DNA of 64,000 bases from Lytechinus pictus (taxonomy: Eukaryota), in contig NC_087251.1 of NCBI RefSeq assembly GCF_037042905.1, positions 7,504,001 to 7,568,000 of the forward strand, given 5' to 3'. The position numbers and the translations under genes were made by a program. Below are positions 1,487 through 11,749 of this stretch, piece after piece; positions within the stretch are counted from its first letter, which is position 1, and every line of letters starts with the position of its first letter. Below the pieces are notes generated by a model, which worked only from the letters and a program-made list of their open reading frames with translations, made no database searches and had not been told where the DNA came from.

Positions 1487-4400
1487 GTGAGTTTTATCAT
1501 TGCATATATATTGGAAGAAAAGGGCAATGACTCTTGAAGTGAATTTCTATTTCGATTTTACCCATGTAACTTATTTGTCCCAAATGCTCAAATTTGTGTA
1601 TTGTAGCTGAACTACATGTATATCTAGACTTGAAAATGAAAATCTTTCTTTTATGGAAATATAACATGGTTTCACTTCATTTTCCATTCATATTAGAATT
1701 ATTTATTTGTGATATATACATTTTTTATTCATTTTAAACCAGTATGATAAGAATTAAAGGAATATTTGGTCAGTTTTAAGGTTTTTTGGGTCACTTCCCT
1801 AACAGTTTAAATGTTTACAAAAATTTGTAAATGTTCTTTGTGTTAATGGTCGTTTAAATATTGGTTAAATGTTTTGACTCAGGCCTAGTCAATTTTAAGG
1901 TACATTTGTCCTGTTTCCAAATGGTTGAACTGTTGAGCAAAGTTTGTAAACTTTTTTTTTGTCAACAGTCATTTGAATGTCCGTTAAACGTTAAAATAAG
2001 AATTCTAAACCAGTTTCATTTCATATTTTATCGCTGCACTGGGGTCCAATTGGTGCAATGCTGTTGTGACCCAGTATAATGAAAGTGATGACCCACCATC
2101 CCCTTGTGAATTGTGCACACTTCAAATGTTGGGCAACATACTGTCCACTGTGTTGGGTAATGTATGTTGGTAAAAAATATATATATTCTGGGCAATTATT
2201 AAGCAAATTTATTACCCAATTATTTTTTATTACCCAATTTGGACAGATTTTAACCAATAGTTGTGTGGACTGTATGTTGCCCAGTGATGGTTAATAATTG
2301 TGCCTTTTTTGCCCAACCTTTTTAAGAGTGAGTATCCCTTGCGCTTTTAAATTGTCTGTCCTGGCCAAACTTGTTTCTGATTATAAGGTGCATCTCCAAC
2401 TTTTGGTGTTTTTACGGGGGGGAAAATACATGTCTTACTTTACTTTATGAATATGTGAGCCATTGACAATATAGAATAGGGAACTGATTCCGATTTGACA
2501 CACTCTTTGTTTGTTTGAATGCTTTTCAAGTATTAAATAGATTGGGTATTAATGTACCTTATGGGGCATATATATATATTTAGTGAAAGAAGAGAACATT
2601 GGAAGGCGTAGCTTAAATTAAGGTTCCCCAGAGCTACCTGCCCTTTATAAAAATTGGTGATGCCGGAAAACAGCTTCTGCCGGGAATCGAACCCAGGCCC
2701 TCAGCTTTGAACGCTGGAGCCTTAACCACTAGACCACAGTGATGGGTTAGTGGCTAGGGCAACCCCTGTCCGATTGACCGTCAGATAAACAGATTTTTGA
2801 CACCACTAATTAAATTTTGAACAATGACAAGCCGCCATACCTCAGCTGGATCAAAGCTATTGCTTAGATAGCCTACAGTACGTGTATGGGACAAATTATA
2901 CAAATGTGAGAAATTATACATGTACAGCAGCTTTGGCAACATATGTTGTGAAAGAAATGAAGAGAACAAGGGTAGGCATAGCTTAAATCAAGGTGCCCAA
3001 GAGCTATCTGCCCTTTTTTTTTTGCTTTGCCCCTCTGCCACTCATACATTGTATGTATGTATACTAGTGTGCACAATTTTTAGTGTACCGGTAACATGAT
3101 TTTGAATGCATTTTTGTGATTTTTCTAAATAGAGATTACTGAAACTAGTGATGCGAAAGAGGCATTTACTGATGTTGATTTTGCTGTCCTCGTGGGAGCC
3201 ATGCCCCGTAGGGAGGGTATGGAACGTTCTGATCTTCTCAAGGCCAATGTCAAGATATTTGAATCCCAGGGAAAAGCTATCGATCAGTTTGCTAAGAAAA
3301 CAGTCAAGGTAAAAAATATTTTTTCCAATTATTTTAGAAGGCTTTAAGATGACATGCTGAATCTCATTAGGATTATTCCAGTTTCTTAGATTCCACCACA
3401 TTAGTATTATATGATTTGGGATTCGGGTGAAATCCTGGTGGTTTCAAGCTGTGGGATGATTCCATAGTGGTTTAGTATCAATAAACAACACTGATGACAA
3501 TATATTTTCATTCATAAATCATTATAAAAACGGAATATACGTAAGGTTGCAACTAAGCTTTATGCATTATTTTAATGTACATTTATGATTTTTCAATCAC
3601 ATTGTTCAATACCATATGATTCTTTTTGATTTACCAAATATGAAATTCTTATTGACACTCTTTAGGTACTGGTTGTTGGAAACCCAGCCAACACCAATTG
3701 TTTGGTCTGCATGAAGTGTGCTCCATCTATACCTCAAGAAAACTTTACTTGTATGACAAGACTGGATCAAAACAGGGCCCAGGCTCAGGTGAGTTAATAT
3801 GAACCAATCTCATGCACAAATATTTAATATCTATTTCTTTGAGATTTTCTGTACCAATTTTGCCCAAATGAATGCCCACTATGTTTCACATAAATAATCT
3901 TACACCAATACAACAATTTCAATTCCACCTGTCGAAGTACACATGACATGCAATGTACAAGTGTCGTCTTTCTCTTTTCCACAGCCCTTTATAAATGCAA
4001 TAAGATGATCCTTACCGGTATATTGTAGTGCTGTAGCCGAACTGCCGAACCGAACGGAAGTTCGCCGAACTTGGCACTTCCGAACCGGACTGAACCGAAC
4101 CGAACGCAAAGGCCTGGTTCGGTGGTTCGGTAAAAAAAAAAAGGCACATTAATATAGCTAAATAAAATGCATAACAGTGGGGACTACATAGATTTAACTG
4201 TAAAATAAATAAAAGAATTATTGGTTAGTGATTGTGCACAATAAGAATTCCACCCAAAATATTTTTAAAATCCACTATGAAAGCTCCCATCTCATCTTTG
4301 ATTGAACTGTTATCAACTTAAGAATATTTTTATTAACATGAATATATTTTTTCTTGATAAAATGAGGGGACATTTGAAGCTAAACTCGGTATAAAAGTGT

Positions 4401-7400
4401 GATTAATTACATATTGTCGTAATCGATCGTGATCGTAAACGGACCTAATTATTTTGTGTTTAATAAAGAAAAGGACCAGACATATATTCATTCCTCATAA
4501 ATGACAGCTTCGGTCTCGTCTTTAATTGAATTTTTATCAGTTTCAATATTTTTATAAACATGAATTTATTTTTTTCTTCATAAAATGTGGGAACATTTTA
4601 AGCTAAACACAGTTCAAAAGTGTAGTTGAATTACGTATTGCTGTAATCGATCGTGATTGTAATCAGACGTACATGTAATTGTTTTGTATTCAAAAAAAGA
4701 AAAAGACAATACATAAATTAAAGGAGAATGAAACCCTTGAAACCAGCTGAATCAATATCAAAGAGAAAAATCAAAGAAACATAATGTGAAAGTTTGAGGA
4801 AGATTGAATGAATAATAAGAAAGTTATGAGCATTTGAATATTGAGATCACTAGTGCCATGTAGATCCTCCCATTGGCAATGCGACCAAGATCTGTGATGT
4901 CACACACGTACAACTCCCTCATTACTTTAGTACTTATTTCACTTATATTCTCACTTTTATAGAGTCTATCACAAGGTGAGGTATTTTCTTTATGAGATGA
5001 CAAGTACAGAGGTTTCACAACATTATATCATTGATGAATCATTTGTCATATGATTTAAATGAGCAAAAAGAGATGTTTTGGGGTATATTTTCAGTGTCCA
5101 AATGGGAGAGTTGTACGTGTGTGACATCACAGATCTTGGTCGCGTTGCCAATGGGAGGATCTCCATAGCATTAGTGATCTCGACATTCAAATGCTCATAA
5201 CTCTTTTATTGCTAGTCCTATTTTACTCAAACTTTTGTTGATCTTATTCTTTGATTTTTCTGCTTACACAAAAGCTAACTTGCTTCAAGAGTTTCATTCT
5301 CCTTTAATTCCTTGTGACAGACAAAGTAATGGTAAAGTATATTTCACCTTCTGAAATTTTCATGTTAAGATAAATGATAAATAAATAAGAGATGAAGGAA
5401 TGAGGGTAGAAAAAACAGAAAAGATAAAAATTCAAACCAAATCAACGCATGTTCCCTGATCGCGTTCCGGAAATGGTTGGTAAGGAAAGTTGAAACAGGA
5501 AGTCCAAACAACCTGCTCTCAGTTGCTATTATACAGGTAAAATTTGTATTCCGAATTCAAAACGTTTTTCCATTGTCAATATTTTCTAAAAAGTGGTTTA
5601 ATCTGGTCAATTACTGAAAATGAAATGATAAATTATCAGTTCCATCTTGGTTCTGAAGATCAACGCCGAGTGATTTCACAACACTAAAATACACAGTACA
5701 GTCCCATTTACTCATTTTCGTGTTGGAAATATGTTTGAAGTCACGTAGCGTCAATCTTTCTGGACCAAGAATGGACTGATATTTTATCTTTTTAAAGTAA
5801 TTGATTGACCAGATTTAACCACTTTTCAGAAAATAGGGACTTTCTAAAACATTTCATATTCTTTGGAATGTGAATTTTACCAGTATAATAACAGTTGAGT
5901 GGAGGTTGTTTGTCAACTGTTTCGACACTCTCGATCAACAATTTCCAATCGGAGAAGCTGCGTGCAGCGTTTGCAATGACATTGTAATCGATCATGATCA
6001 TAGCTACATGAAATAATCATGAAAAAAAAAATGATCTTTGTAATTCCATTTCTGTCCTGATTCTCTCATTATCAATATTTTTTCTTTGTTTTTTTTTATT
6101 TCATTTTAAAAATGAAAGTAGAAATGACTCTTATTTTTGTTTAAAGATTAAAATAAATAAAAGAAAGTTATGCAACAATTCTTATAACTATTCTTTTTAG
6201 AAACAAAATTTATTATAAATATGTGACGGATCTTTGTTAATATTATCTGTTCGAGGGTCGGCATTTCCTTATTTTATGTTAGTAATTTAATTTTGGCATT
6301 AATAGCTGAACCCCGAATCGAACCAAAGTTCGGAAAAAAATTGCCGAACCGAACCGAACCCGAACATGCCGCCTGACTTGCAGCACTAGTATATTGGTTC
6401 ATTTTTCTTATGATTTTGTGAATGATTTGCACATATTCTCAGATTGCCAGTCGTTTGAGTGTTGCTTGCAATGCTGTTAAGAAAGTTACCATCTGGGGTA
6501 ACCACTCCAGTACTCAATTCCCTGATGCTGCTCATGCTGTTGTAGACATTGATAGCCAGCAGCTTAAAGTTCCTGAAGCTGTCAAGGATGATGATTGGCT
6601 CAATGGAGAATTCATCAAGGTAGTCTTATTTTGAGTTTTTGCTCATATTAGATCTGTGCACACAATTCTCGCTACCCCAAATAGCGATTTCGCCGAGATC
6701 CGGGAAAAATCCCTGTAACGCGCATTGCATTATGGGATAGCTTTTCGGTATTACAACTTCCTGTTCGGAAGTCCAATGCACTGTTTTGCCATTCAGAACA
6801 ACAGTGCCGTCATCCACAACAACACAACGTCGCTTTCGCTTGGAAAGTTCGTGATCACAACCCTCTCTTTCACGATACAGTTTAACGGCCTTTTCTGCTG
6901 AAGTCACTTACTAATTCTGCCCGATGCTTTCCTTTGCACGGTATTCCTCTGTCAGTTAAGATTTGTTTAAGTTCTGAAACTGATTTTTTTATCCATTTTG
7001 TGGTCGACGAAAAATTGAACGGAATGAATGCTGTAGTGTATATATTTATAGCGTCTAGTCGAATACGGTCGTGATGTCAGGCCGGTCGCTGAATGCAAAA
7101 TTTTAAGATATTCATTTTTCGTTTTATTTTTTTATAACCAAATAAAAACATGAATAAAAATTATTTTCACGTGAAATATATTTTGTATTTTTATTCATAA
7201 TTCAAATGGAATCAAAACTGACCAAATTAAATAAAAAGTATAATCTGTACATATTACGCTGATTGGCATCGATTTCAACGTGGTGGAAAACTCAGTATCG
7301 CGAACCTCGCGCGAGCATGACTCTGAACCGGAAGTGGTGATGACGACCCGACGGAGTGAAAATTCTCTCGTCTCGCGCATTATGAGATTTTTGTTCCTAT

Positions 7401-9173
7401 TTGGGGTAGCGAGAATTGGAATGTGGATAATAACTGTCTCAAACTGATTTGGAAATGTTTATAATCTACCTAAGAAGAATTGTATGCTTTCTGATTAGTA
7501 TTTATAATCTACCCAGCAATTAGTTGATATTGTTAATTGAATTTGTCAAATTTCATCCCAAGATTTGGTCTACAAGATCAAGTTTAAAAAACATGAATGA
7601 AAAATAAATTTGGTTGATTGCTGTTTAGTTTATTATCCTTTTTCTTTTATTATTTTTTTTTGCATAATTAATCAAAGATGCCAATTTGAATACAACTATA
7701 TAATAGGTGTTCAAATGTTTAGTTAATTTCTTTTGTTGTAACATATTTCCCCAACCTTTAAAGGTCTTCTTGAATAGTTTTTCAGACGTAATGAAAAAAA
7801 TTAGCGGGGACAGTTTAAAATGGGGATAGCGGCTTGTAGGTGGAAGGTCAAGATTTGCAATTCTGGTTCATTGAATGTGTATTAATGAAGCGATTATACT
7901 TACTGCTATTTTTAACACGTTTGTAGACTGTTCAAGTCCGTGGAGCTAGTGTTATCAAGGCAAGGAAGCTATCCAGTGCCATGTCAGCTGCCAAGGCTAT
8001 CTGTGATCACTTGAAAGACTGGCATTTTGGCACTTCTGAGGTAAATTATTAGTCTTTGTATTTTACTACTTTTACTACCGTAAACTGAACATTTCTTTTC
8101 ATATTAGTAAATTAACCCATACTAGGCCAGGTTTTTGGGGTTGTTAGCTGGATGAGGGGGGGGGGTGAGTTGAATCAACCCCCCCCCCCTTTTGAGATCT
8201 TGGCCGCTGGTCGCCGCAAAAATTTGCATGATATAGTGTGGGATGTATTCTACAAGGATCTAATTCTGCTAATTTATGCACAAATTATACCTATAATCTG
8301 ATTTGCTAAGAAGGGCTTGTAGAGTGCTAATTTTAGGTGTGAATATTCTTTATACCATTCCTAACCAATGAAAAAATACAGTTTGAAAGTCAATTTTTTA
8401 CTTCAATTATTCAGGATGTATTTCTTAGTTTTCAACCTTTTGTTTTTCTTTGTTTTTTCTATCAAATTTTATTGCGGAAACATTTTGAAGCATAATTATG
8501 CTAAAACCATTAAATTTCATAATTCATACCTATGCTCTGATTTGCTGAAAAATGCTCTCAGAATGCTAATTTTTGGTGTAAATATTCTGTATACTGCTCC
8601 TAACAAATTTTGCAACTGCGTACCTGGATGCCAAAATTTGGTCTTGACAGATGCACAAGATTTCAAAGTAAAAAATCAGCAATTCGAAAAAATTTCGCCC
8701 AGTGGAATGATCATGTTTTGGAAGCTTTGTTAGGCCTACATTTGATCATTTCATTGGGATACTTTTGTTTGTGTGTCTTAAGTTTCTCAGGTGACGCTAG
8801 AGAAAATGGTGTTGCACTTGTAAATAAAGTTTTGAGGGTTGAAGAGAGTGATTTTTTTTGCTCCACAGGCCAAATCACCATGCCTGAATTATTACAGAAC
8901 ATGATCTCTCAATTAGACTCTATTAATATTTTGAGCTCATTTTCTTTCTTCTTGCAGGGTTCTTGGGTATCCATGGGAGTATACAGTGATAATAATCAGT
9001 ACGGCATTCCACAGGGCCTCATCTACAGTATGCCAGTCAACATTGGTAAAGATGGAAGGTGGACTGTTGTCCAGGGTCTTAGCATCTCTGACTTTGCTCG
9101 AGAGAAGATGGACCTGACTGCCAAAGAGCTTCTTGATGAGAAGGAAGTTGCTTTCCAATTTATCCAACAATGA
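1390..9173 (+). CDS. MDH1: Cytosolic malate dehydrogenase, 5'-partial spliced CDS: join(1390-1486,3133-3308,3666-3788,6443-6619,7927-8040,8958-9173)
   Basis: All introns are GT-AG and phases are consistent. Translation contains [63 protein letters not shown] and [12 protein letters not shown]. The N-terminal exons lie upstream of the window. Confidence 0.97.
2583..3016 (-). repeat. tRNA-derived repeat unit with about 65-bp terminal direct repeats
   Basis: Direct repeats 2583-2646 and 2948-3016; A box TGGTCTAGTGG and B box GGTTCGATTCC on the minus strand (2673-2743). Confidence 0.65.
3133..3308 (+). CDS. MDH1: MDH1 exon (176 nt) [58 protein letters not shown]
   Basis: tag| acceptor, |gtaaaa donor; substrate loop PRREGMER. 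Confidence 0.96.
3666..3788 (+). CDS. MDH1: MDH1 exon (123 nt) [41 protein letters not shown]
   Basis: tttag| acceptor, |gtgagt donor; catalytic Asp motif TRLD. Confidence 0.96.
4026..6388. mobile_element. Non-autonomous hAT-like transposon
   Basis: 8-bp TSD GTATATTG (4018-4025, 6389-6396); TAGTGCTG...CAGCACTA ends; subterminal CCGAA(C) arrays. Confidence 0.88.
4722..5303. mobile_element. TTAA-TSD MITE (Kolobok/T2-like) nested in the hAT element
   Basis: TIR AGGAGAATGAAAC / GTTTCATTCTCCT, TTAA on both sides; near-identical copy at 43623-44206. Confidence 0.9.
6443..6619 (+). CDS. MDH1: MDH1 exon (177 nt) [28 protein letters not shown]...WLNGEFIK
   Basis: ctcag| acceptor, |gtagtc donor; catalytic His in WGNHS. 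Confidence 0.96.
6663..7418. mobile_element. MITE with perfect 22-bp TIR
   Basis: CAATTCTCGCTACCCCAAATAG (6663-6684) / CTATTTGGGGTAGCGAGAATTG (7397-7418); no TSD evident. Confidence 0.8.
7927..8040 (+). CDS. MDH1: MDH1 exon (114 nt) [38 protein letters not shown]
   Basis: tgtag| acceptor, |gtaaat donor. Confidence 0.96.
8958..9173 (+). CDS. MDH1: MDH1 last coding exon [11 protein letters not shown]...[11 protein letters not shown]
   Basis: Polypyrimidine tract and tgcag| acceptor; TGA at 9171-9173. Confidence 0.96.
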
Positions 9174-9215
9174 CCGACTGCTCGTGGAATGAGTACAGAC
9201 AAGTCTCGTCTCTGA
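9171..9215 (+). CDS. MDH1: Putative stop-codon readthrough extension of MDH1: (X)PTARGMSTDKSRL* carrying PTS1 SRL
   Basis: TGA CCG ACT GCT CGT GGA ATG AGT ACA GAC AAG TCT CGT CTC TGA in frame; parallels vertebrate MDH1x. Confidence 0.75.
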
Positions 9216-9375
9216 GACTCTGTTTAGTCTATTTCTATGGAGAAAATTAAATGGAAACAAATGTTAAGCATATACTATATGATTGATATAAAACTATTCA
9301 CCTGTTTGGTGTGGATTACTATTGTAGCTTTCTTTATTTGACCATTTGAATGTGCAGCTAATAACTGTTCATCCC

Positions 9376-9381
9376 AATAAA
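9376..9381 (+). promoter_or_regulatory. Candidate MDH1 polyadenylation signal
   Basis: AATAAA about 200 nt after the stop codon. Confidence 0.5.
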
Positions 9382-10348
9382 ACATGTTGGTTGGCCAGTT
9401 GAACTGGTATATATATAATCTTTGAATTTAATATCAATTTTCTGCCAGTTTGAAATATTGCTACCCATGGTACTTTTGCATCAAGACTTATTGTGGCATT
9501 GGAGTTGTGATGTTTGGTTTGCCTACAAATTCTGTATTTTGTTTTGATATGTTTCTCTTTTTTTCCACACTTTTATTATATTATAGTGCCCTATTTGATA
9601 GGTTCTGTATTTAAATCTGATATCTTATTTGAATTATTCTTTTTAAAATTAAAGTGATTTCATTTGTATTGACTCTCCTTTTAAAGTACTCTTTCCACGG
9701 CTTCGAAGCTATACTTCATATTTTAGACGCCAATGTTATACTAAGATGAGTATCCCACTGCTTTCCTGATTAAATATGGTAGCCAATCTTCAGTGACCTA
9801 TTTTTGTTTATTAAAGGTGATACAATCCTATCTTTAAATATTAGGGGCCTTAGGTGTGACTGTTGCAACTATTCTGAACATTTCAAAATAAGACATATGT
9901 ATAATCCTTGTACAGTCTTGAATTAGTGATCCATGAATTATTAAAAAAAAATATGTTGTTTTGACTCACCAAATAGAAAACTATACTTATGAAGTTATAA
10001 ACCTGTATATTTCATATATTTTTTTCTGTATTAATGATTAAAGCTTTTTATCTTTGACCAAATTGAAAATTGCTTCTAAGAAACAACAATTATTGTGCAA
10101 CTAAGTTGCAGAACTACTGATGAAAAGAAATAGTGAGATGAATTTTTTTCCTAATGTCTCTGGTACCCTGTGATATTGTGTTTTGTGCTTCAATTATGTA
10201 CTGCTTCTACTGAAGGCATCTTGTTTGATGTGATTAGTAGCCGATCAATAAAGTGATAAAACCGATAGATCTGTGTGAACAAGTGAGTCAAAGATTTGAT
10301 TGTCAATTGTGATGTTGTCACTCTGCAAGTTAAAGACCACATGCAATG

Positions 10349-11749
10349 CAGTGGCGTAACAGGCGGGGGGGCAGGGGGGGCAAGCTGCCCCCCCTGGCGG
10401 AGCTCACCGGGAAAATTAAAAAAAACGGGAAAAAGAAAAAAAAGGGGGGAGGGAAGGGAAAGGGAAAGGGAAAGGAAAAGGGAAAAGAAAACTAAGAAAA
10501 AACATAAAAAAGGGAAAACGGAAAGATAACGGGAAAAGGAAGGAAAAAAGAACAAGTGAGAAAGAACAATTCGCCCCGATATACAAATACATTAGCATGA
10601 TTAGTAAGACAGGGAAATAAATAAAAGATGACAAAAAGGCAAACAAAAGCGGGAAATAAAGGCAGAATGGAATTAGCCAAAATCTAAATGGGAAAATAAA
10701 TAGGGACAAGATAACGTACACTACCGGGCTGCCGAGGATTGAGATAACGAGCGGGAAGAAAAATGGATGGTATATAGCATAATGTCGTATGAAAGTCTAT
10801 CATAAAACTTGCTAAATCTCCGAAGGCTCTGTCCAAGAGTCAATTAGACCCCGTGCAGTGGGGGCTCTTCATCTGTAACCTTTAATGGGTTCTATAACGG
10901 GCCCCTATATGGACCCTTCCTGCATTAAGCTTTACGTTGAAGCACTGGCGTACCGGGGGTGGTTCCACAGCCAGAAGGAAATAAAAGAAAATAAAGAAGG
11001 CAGCGAAATGAGATGAATGAAAAAAAAATATATGACATGATATTTGCTATAATGATGTAAAAATCTATCACATAATTAGAATTTCATTTTAACAGGCCAT
11101 TTTTTTCTGGCTCGCTTCGCTCGCTGGCGACTTTTTACAAATTTTCCCACATTTGCTATGGTGTGCCCCTCACAATATTTGGATGATTCCGATACACACT
11201 TGAATTTATGTGTTGTGTTAAAGCTATATAAATATACACGCAATTTGATTAAAATAAGTGGCCATCTGTAAGGTTTAAAATGGCTTTGATATCAAGAGGT
11301 TCCGGGGCTCTGCCCTGGACCCCACCCATAAAGCATTGTTATATGGATGAGTTTGGACCATGGCCCCCAAAAGTTCTACAACCAAACAAACAAAAATGAG
11401 GAAAGAAAGGAAAGTGTATTATATTTTTCTGAATATCACGTAAAAATCTATCTTCATGTTAGATTCTCATGAAAAGGTGATTTTTTTATCTCGCTCGCTT
11501 CGCTCGCTCGGGACCTATATTAAGCTACTTCTTGCCAGAAGCGCCATACTCGGCCCCCTCGAGCATATAGAGCTTCGCCCTGATGCTCACAATCATAACA
11601 AAAATCCTGTTCACCGTGGCGTACAAAAAAAGAGAGAAAAAAGGAAAGATAGAAGGGTGAAATATGATATCATCTTTTTAACATTATGTCAAAATCTATC
11701 ACAAAATTGGATTTTTACAATAAAAATGTCAAAAGTTTTTGCTCGCTCG

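Follow-up and report, generated by a model that had tools for sequence, protein, structure and literature searches.

Does the cytosolic malate dehydrogenase gene of a sea urchin, Lytechinus pictus, conceal a peroxisomal targeting signal behind its stop codon, and do ribosomes reach that signal by reading through the stop? The question arises from the human orthologue, for which both translational readthrough and peroxisomal targeting of the extended product, MDH1x, have been demonstrated (Stiebler et al. 2014, PMC4207609). Readthrough of the human MDH1 stop codon was put at ~4%, with the codon decoded as Trp or Arg (Hofhuis et al. 2016, PMC5133446). As stated by Stiebler et al., the efficiency of the process is governed mainly by UGA and by the two nucleotides CU that follow it (PMC4207609), and UGA CUA has been derived as the high-readthrough consensus (Schueren et al. 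2014, PMC4359377). For comparison, the DHX38 control of the latter study, a UGA CUU G context of low predicted propensity that departs from the UGA CUA consensus, was read through at 0.27% in HeLa cells (PMC4359377). Here we describe the urchin gene and its transcript, follow the sequence behind the stop codon into relatives of increasing distance, and weigh the readings that the resulting pattern of conservation allows.

The MDH1 gene and the frame behind its stop codon

The window, by which we mean the whole stretch of 64,000 nucleotides analysed, is part of an 812-Mb genome in 368 contigs. Six exons within it, all on the plus strand, align to the L. pictus protein P0001, listed in nr as 'malate dehydrogenase, cytoplasmic-like [Lytechinus pictus]', on the evidence of tblastn and splice sites. 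The most upstream of these, 1390–1486, was delimited by tblastn and splice sites and corresponds approximately to residues 34–66 of P0001; the exon at 3133–3308 matches with 98% identity and has AG/GT borders. Two further coding exons, 3666–3788 and 6443–6619, were placed by tblastn of P0001, as was the penultimate coding exon, 7927–8040, whose splice to the last exon (8040/8958) is also seen in RNA. The coding part of the last exon, recognised from the sequence and from protein matches, occupies 8958–9170 (8958–9173 with the stop codon) and specifies 71 residues ending in EVAFQFIQQ. The window does not include the first coding exon, which is located upstream; a search of the urchin's own genome placed residues 2–36 before the window start. 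In the last exon 70 of the 71 residues equal those of P0001, PF00056 and PF02866 are present in its protein matches, and the gene is identified as MDH1, the cytosolic NAD malate dehydrogenase. The intron in front of the last exon (8041–8957) includes a segment of repeated DNA at 8395–8560, where contigs of several runs stack to a depth of hundreds to thousands and where raw RNA reads lie in both directions, with many differences and loose ends.

The annotated stop codon, TGA at 9171–9173 (plus strand), stands in the context CAA CAA TGA CCG A, and it is at this position that named MDH1 proteins all terminate. Behind it the frame of the last exon stays open for 13 codons (9174–9212, plus strand; CCG ACT GCT CGT GGA ATG AGT ACA GAC AAG TCT CGT CTC), which would be translated as PTARGMSTDKSRL, and is closed by a second in-frame TGA at 9213–9215 (plus strand). 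The final three codons, 9204–9212, spell SRL, a canonical tripeptide of the peroxisomal targeting signal of type 1 (PTS1), and a lysine directly precedes them, so that K-SRL stands immediately before the next stop, where MDH1x also has its PTS1. On re-reading, this part of the sequence matched its original description exactly. The codon to be read through is a UGA, again as in MDH1x. The high-readthrough context UGA CU(A G) is absent; the urchin has UGA CCG A, in which only the C at +4 fits. The original prediction was right to set this context apart from the UGA CUA G of vertebrates, and we judge fair its further claim that scans for UGA-CUAG would miss the present case. Its description of vertebrate MDH1x as ending in CRL applies to the mammals; non-mammalian vertebrates have SRL, except amphibia, according to Hofhuis et al. 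(PMC5133446), and SRL in the urchin is therefore the common form of the signal.

The extension in the transcript

Four runs were mapped to 7900–9520, among them X19, a set of raw stranded RNA reads from the same species of which ~6% of the run was used. Contigs of another run, X1, left the MDH1 exons uncovered despite the run's containing their words, a gap that carries no weight as evidence. The X19 reads on the 3′ end of MDH1 all point in the same direction. They cover 8956–9330 at a depth of ~20 across the last exon, the value at 9165–9219 being 19.9, and beneath them lies a 3′UTR stretch of 9174–9330 (plus strand) in which the depth is 6.4 at 9275–9329. The splice 8040/8958, with GT..AG borders, is crossed by 22 raw X19 reads and is present in transcript contigs of a congener as well. 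No joint of the last exon other than this constitutive one, and hence no alternative splice, was seen in the X19 reads; the extension therefore belongs to the mature mRNA, and the PTS1 frame is not reached by splicing.

This result also bears on two other routes by which the signal could become part of a protein, namely decoding of the UGA as selenocysteine, and a PTS1-bearing form that arises by alternative splicing or polyadenylation; neither gained any support. A search of 8900–11000 at E up to 1 returned no SECIS element and no other Rfam family above threshold, and with the normal 8040/8958 joint as the only one observed we rejected both selenocysteine and alternative splicing; the whole group of explanations is scarcely credible. 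The same search gave a weak SNORD87-like match at 10024–10113 on the plus strand (20.8 bits, where the gathering score is 50; E 0.79), which is probably due to chance.

Conservation of the extension in a congener

How often would a frame end in such a signal by accident? Across all six frames of the window, [SAC][KRH][LM] ends 31 of 6303 stop-to-stop segments (0.49%) and SRL ends three of them (0.05%), while base composition predicts 0.31–0.32% and 0.07%, respectively. The chance expectation of ~0.4% put forward with the original prediction holds up against both figures. At 0.3–0.5% a single PTS1 tail is weak evidence on a genome-wide scale and proves nothing alone; it is the comparison with relatives that makes the hidden PTS1 more than chance.

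The nearest relative available is a congener, represented by two transcript contigs from the runs X5 and X11, which belong to two studies and share 41% of their sampled words. Its last coding exon differs from that of the window at four of 213 sites: C>G at 9023 (Ile to Met), A>G at 9039 (Asn to Asp), C>A at 9156 (Gln to Lys) and a silent T>C at 9161. Three of these four differences thus change a residue, and none is listed for the extension behind them. Indeed there are 0 listed differences across the whole of 9162–9248, where 24 of the 25 differences per congener contig piece are listed, which leaves at most a single unlisted one that the extension might contain. The distal 3′UTR (9249–9520) differs at 20 of 272 sites (7.4%), with indels in addition. 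At this distal rate the probability of finding no change is ~0.03 for the 45 nucleotides from stop to stop and ~0.003 for 78 nucleotides; the extension, which shows no listed change, therefore evolves as slowly as coding sequence. The quiet stretch of the congener extends 33 nucleotides beyond the second stop, into a conserved non-coding block at 9216–9248 (plus strand) that contains an in-frame TAG at 9225–9227 and is seen in the congener and, in part, in the more distant relative described below. Because there is no change at all, the congener pattern cannot part constraint on the peptide from constraint on the RNA.

A distant relative and the case for an RNA element

The last exon and its extension, with TGA read as W, served as the query against 1.84 billion representative proteins at E up to 0.001. 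The search yielded 987 matches, the best of which is P0005, a 101-residue fragment; P0162, from the same cluster, lies on a contig that looks genomic and has its intron at the same place. The source of these two sequences, hereafter organism C, reads ...TANQFVQPQ-W-QTARGMSTDETKSRL-W-DK(V/L)LSTFMEKINETEIF. Its last exon is 70% identical to that of the window (49/70), a divergence similar to that of Diadema setosum (70.6%) or of starfish proteins, and its nearest neighbour is protein P0195 at 80%. To judge from these identities, organism C is probably an echinoderm-like relative.

Organism C has a W not only behind its coding end but also where the window has the second TGA. Since the W residues fall at the TGA sites of the window, where all named MDH1 proteins end, we infer that both stand for TGA codons. 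In sister fragments up to three W occur in the ~20 to 50 residues that follow the coding end, a pattern that fits gene calls made under a code in which TGA is W. The residue after the first W of organism C is Q, which would make its stop context UGA CAR if that W is a TGA. Both echinoderm sequences would then have UGA-C, followed through as CCG in the window and CAR in organism C, and the CU core is absent.

Within the extension 12 of the 13 aligned residues are identical in organism C, SRL is kept, and the sole indel is an insertion of two whole codons that preserves the frame. Behind the second stop the identity drops to 7/15 (Fisher p = 0.016). An extension more conserved than the exon it follows cannot be neutral, and the conservation data argue for selection on the tail. 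Two relatives preserve the frame, the PTS1 and the second stop, organism C at the protein level only. A frameshift or a missing PTS1 in close relatives was what the original prediction had named as evidence against itself; the congener and organism C both retain the frame, SRL and the stop.

Not all of this constraint need fall on a peptide. Conservation passes the second stop, reaching 9248 in the congener and persisting to some extent in organism C, and part of the constraint may therefore act on the RNA. Taken to its conclusion, this argument yields the main rival of a readthrough product: a non-coding element of the 3′UTR, such as a binding site for a protein or RNA or a hairpin, that overlaps the open frame and of which the SRL frame is a by-product, its peptide never being produced in useful quantity. 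The congener's freedom from listed differences beyond the second stop agrees with such an element, as do the 7/15 same-frame residues that organism C matches there and a stop context that is not of the high-readthrough type. It would also find support in a hairpin that can be drawn over 9182–9240. The step from 12/13 to 7/15 identical residues coincides with the second stop, however, and an RNA element offers no reason for the only indel of the extension to comprise two whole codons, or for SRL and the stop that follows it to be kept. Neither would it explain why a PTS1 is found at the same place of MDH1 in other animals, behind unrelated linkers. The predicted hairpin is imperfect and weakly supported: it starts 8 nucleotides behind the first stop on the plus strand and folds with −22.3 kcal/mol, no better than shuffled sequences (z −1.56), of which 13 of 200 fold as well. 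This being not significant, we left the hairpin out of the evidence. On balance we regard an overlapping non-coding element as an unlikely explanation of the whole pattern.

Probable readthrough in a different stop context

Given its position, frame and conservation, the extension probably marks a minor, PTS1-bearing form of MDH1 that is made by readthrough, as in vertebrates, and that would constitute an echinoderm MDH1x. Most ribosomes would terminate at the UGA at 9171–9173 and release cytosolic MDH1, whereas in a small fraction a near-cognate tRNA would decode the UGA, and these would go on to add the 13 residues ending in K-SRL. This C-terminus would serve as a PTS1, through which PEX5 could bring the extended subunit into peroxisomes, and there it may help to re-oxidise the NADH that stems from beta-oxidation. 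We infer the readthrough and its level, the import of the tail and its role in the peroxisome alike.

The idea of dual targeting by readthrough, as originally advanced for this gene, has gained support from the presence of the extension in the mRNA, from the conservation of its frame, SRL and second stop, and from PTS1 signals in the MDH1 of other animals. It fares less well at the stop codon itself, where UGA CCG A takes the place of UGA CUA G: the urchin has UGA CC and lacks the U at +5, a position reported as important in published mutagenesis (PMC4207609). Together with the conservation past the second stop, this context counts among the counter-evidence to a readthrough product. The two could be connected if echinoderm MDH1 had swapped UGA-CUAG for a block of downstream sequence that stimulates readthrough, reaching from the first stop to ~9250 and perhaps including a hairpin. 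The possible hairpin would span the second stop, and the extension would be constrained twice, once as peptide and once as RNA. Such a double constraint, if true, would account for an extension that surpasses the preceding coding exon in conservation; we nonetheless hold the proposal to be unlikely.

Comparison with known systems

A readthrough form of urchin MDH1 would have its closest counterpart in vertebrate MDH1x. The two share the orthologous gene, a UGA-C stop, a short in-frame extension and a PTS1 right before the next stop, and with the non-mammalian vertebrates the urchin has SRL in common (PMC5133446). They differ in the stop context, UGA CUA G in vertebrates and UGA CCG A in the urchin, whose extension measures 13 residues, and in the nature of the evidence, given that readthrough and import have been shown for human MDH1 and the urchin case is known from sequence and mRNA. 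Stiebler et al. describe the cryptic PTS1 of MDH1 as conserved outside the vertebrates too, across the animals as far as Hydra vulgaris (Fig. 4C of PMC4207609), which is the same claim of a hidden signal behind the MDH1 stop. In presenting such a signal outside vertebrates as new, the original prediction therefore overstated its case. The supplements of PMC4207609 name no Strongylocentrotus, Hydra, Branchiostoma, Saccoglossus or Ciona and no echinoderm, and our literature search found no paper that names sea urchin or Strongylocentrotus together with MDH1 readthrough.

Three further systems resemble the urchin gene in part. Mammalian LDHBx is likewise a redox-shuttle dehydrogenase that receives a PTS1 by UGA readthrough, although the enzyme is another one, the trait is confined to mammals and the context is UGA CUA G (PMC4359377). 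In the fungus Ustilago a leaky UGA-C exposes a PTS1 on Tpi1, Art1 and Rpe1 (PMC4207609; its reference Freitag et al. 2012); these too are cytosolic metabolic enzymes, but they differ from urchin MDH1 in having the UGA CU core, in their identity and in the kingdom to which they belong. Yeast Mdh3, as cited in PMC5133446, regenerates NAD+ as a malate dehydrogenase of the peroxisome, and in contrast to the urchin protein it is the product of a separate gene with a constitutive PTS1 in the normal frame and without recoding.

MDH1x thus gains an echinoderm example, one backed directly by comparison, and the urchin tail shows that the UGA-CU context, the basis of published genome screens, is not needed for a hidden signal to persist. 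What sets the urchin case apart is the stop context UGA CCG and the conserved block past the second stop; the kind of phenomenon is already known, and no new kind of biology is opened by it. Sea urchin eggs and embryos readily accept injected mRNA reporters. If readthrough is true, they would be a convenient system in which to ask how much context a functional leaky stop needs, and could reveal any contribution of the conserved block behind the stop.

MDH1 3′ ends in other animals

When metagenome contigs were scanned with the last exon as query, 59 loci were detected. Thirteen were dropped as bacterial-type (L046, L048, L050–L059 except L055's duplicate class, L061 and L062), eight because the match ends before the C-terminus (L016, L060, L063–L068), and L042 on account of an in-frame TAA; 28 distinct animal-like MDH1 3′ ends were retained. 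A canonical PTS1 closes the readthrough frame in four of these 28, for which the window null rate gives a binomial P of ~1e-5, to be read with the phylogenetic non-independence of the metagenome rows in mind. The endings are LLSRL behind TGA CTC (L013/L015), SPAARL behind TGA AGT (L014), RSRLSRL behind TGA CGG (L020) and DHAAVKSRL behind TAG GAT (L041). Four further 3′ ends close with x[KR]L behind TGA-C (PRL, PKL, PKL and HKL), and the other two frames of the metagenome 3′ ends contribute a canonical PTS1 in one of 48 instances. L013 is mollusc-like, being 91% identical to the MDH1 of a littorinid snail, and L043 is 85% identical to that of Aplysia.

Protein fragments point in the same direction. 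We examined 18 of them among the 150 matches listed, chosen because their matches ran past the stop and, like the metagenome loci, phylogenetically non-independent. Eight of the 18 have a W at the MDH1 end, and four of those eight finish in SRL, SHL, SKL and SKL; the remaining four W fragments comprise two that end in PKL or ANL and two without a signal. Across animals the linkers show no relation to one another, either in sequence or in length, and it is the terminal signal that recurs. This recurrence in the same gene points to the C-terminal signal as the selected feature.

Pure coincidence, in which SRL stands before the next in-frame stop by accident alone, can draw on the rate of 0.3–0.5% per gene, which amounts to many cases among tens of thousands of genes. 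Conservation in two relatives and the return of the signal in the same gene across animals strongly disfavour it, and for urchin MDH1 it is very improbable.

The hidden MDH1 PTS1 is not universal among animals. None is present at L011 and L049, and the 16 distinct 3′ ends of an annelid-like group, out of the 28, include no canonical PTS1; 12 of this group use TAA or TAG, and three use TGA CTx with the common ending ...QSPL. Within this group (L017–L040) the TGA CTx members share the QSPL extension and the TAA/TAG members have none, and stop type and extension appear to vary together in the clade.

Several of the sampled lineages use TAA and no longer have the hidden PTS1, which means that the trait can be lost, and the urchin tail might accordingly be an inherited relic: a product of basal error at UGA-C, made in amounts too small to matter, whose peroxisomal role has disappeared or been taken over by other enzymes. 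The UGA CC context without the CU core would suit such a relic. Free of selection, though, it would not still have its frame, both its stops and 12 of its 13 residues in organism C, where the exon identity is 70%, and we consider this decidedly unlikely.

Several homologues deserve separate mention. L010 and L012, both among the 28, and P0225 share ~78% identity with starfish proteins, and in all three the frame itself closes with ...EGKL and a TAA. In L042 the in-frame TAA falls within the conserved C-terminal helix, and the frame reads on, ...MDLSAK before the TAA and LGEERATALEVC... behind it, so that its source organism may read TAA as sense. L004 (G000:C3:47929982-47933842) contains, at 1213–2463, a single stop-to-stop frame of 416 residues that is 31% identical to MDH1 residues 1–276 and has a long N-terminal addition; from its sequence it looks like an MDH1B-type paralogue.
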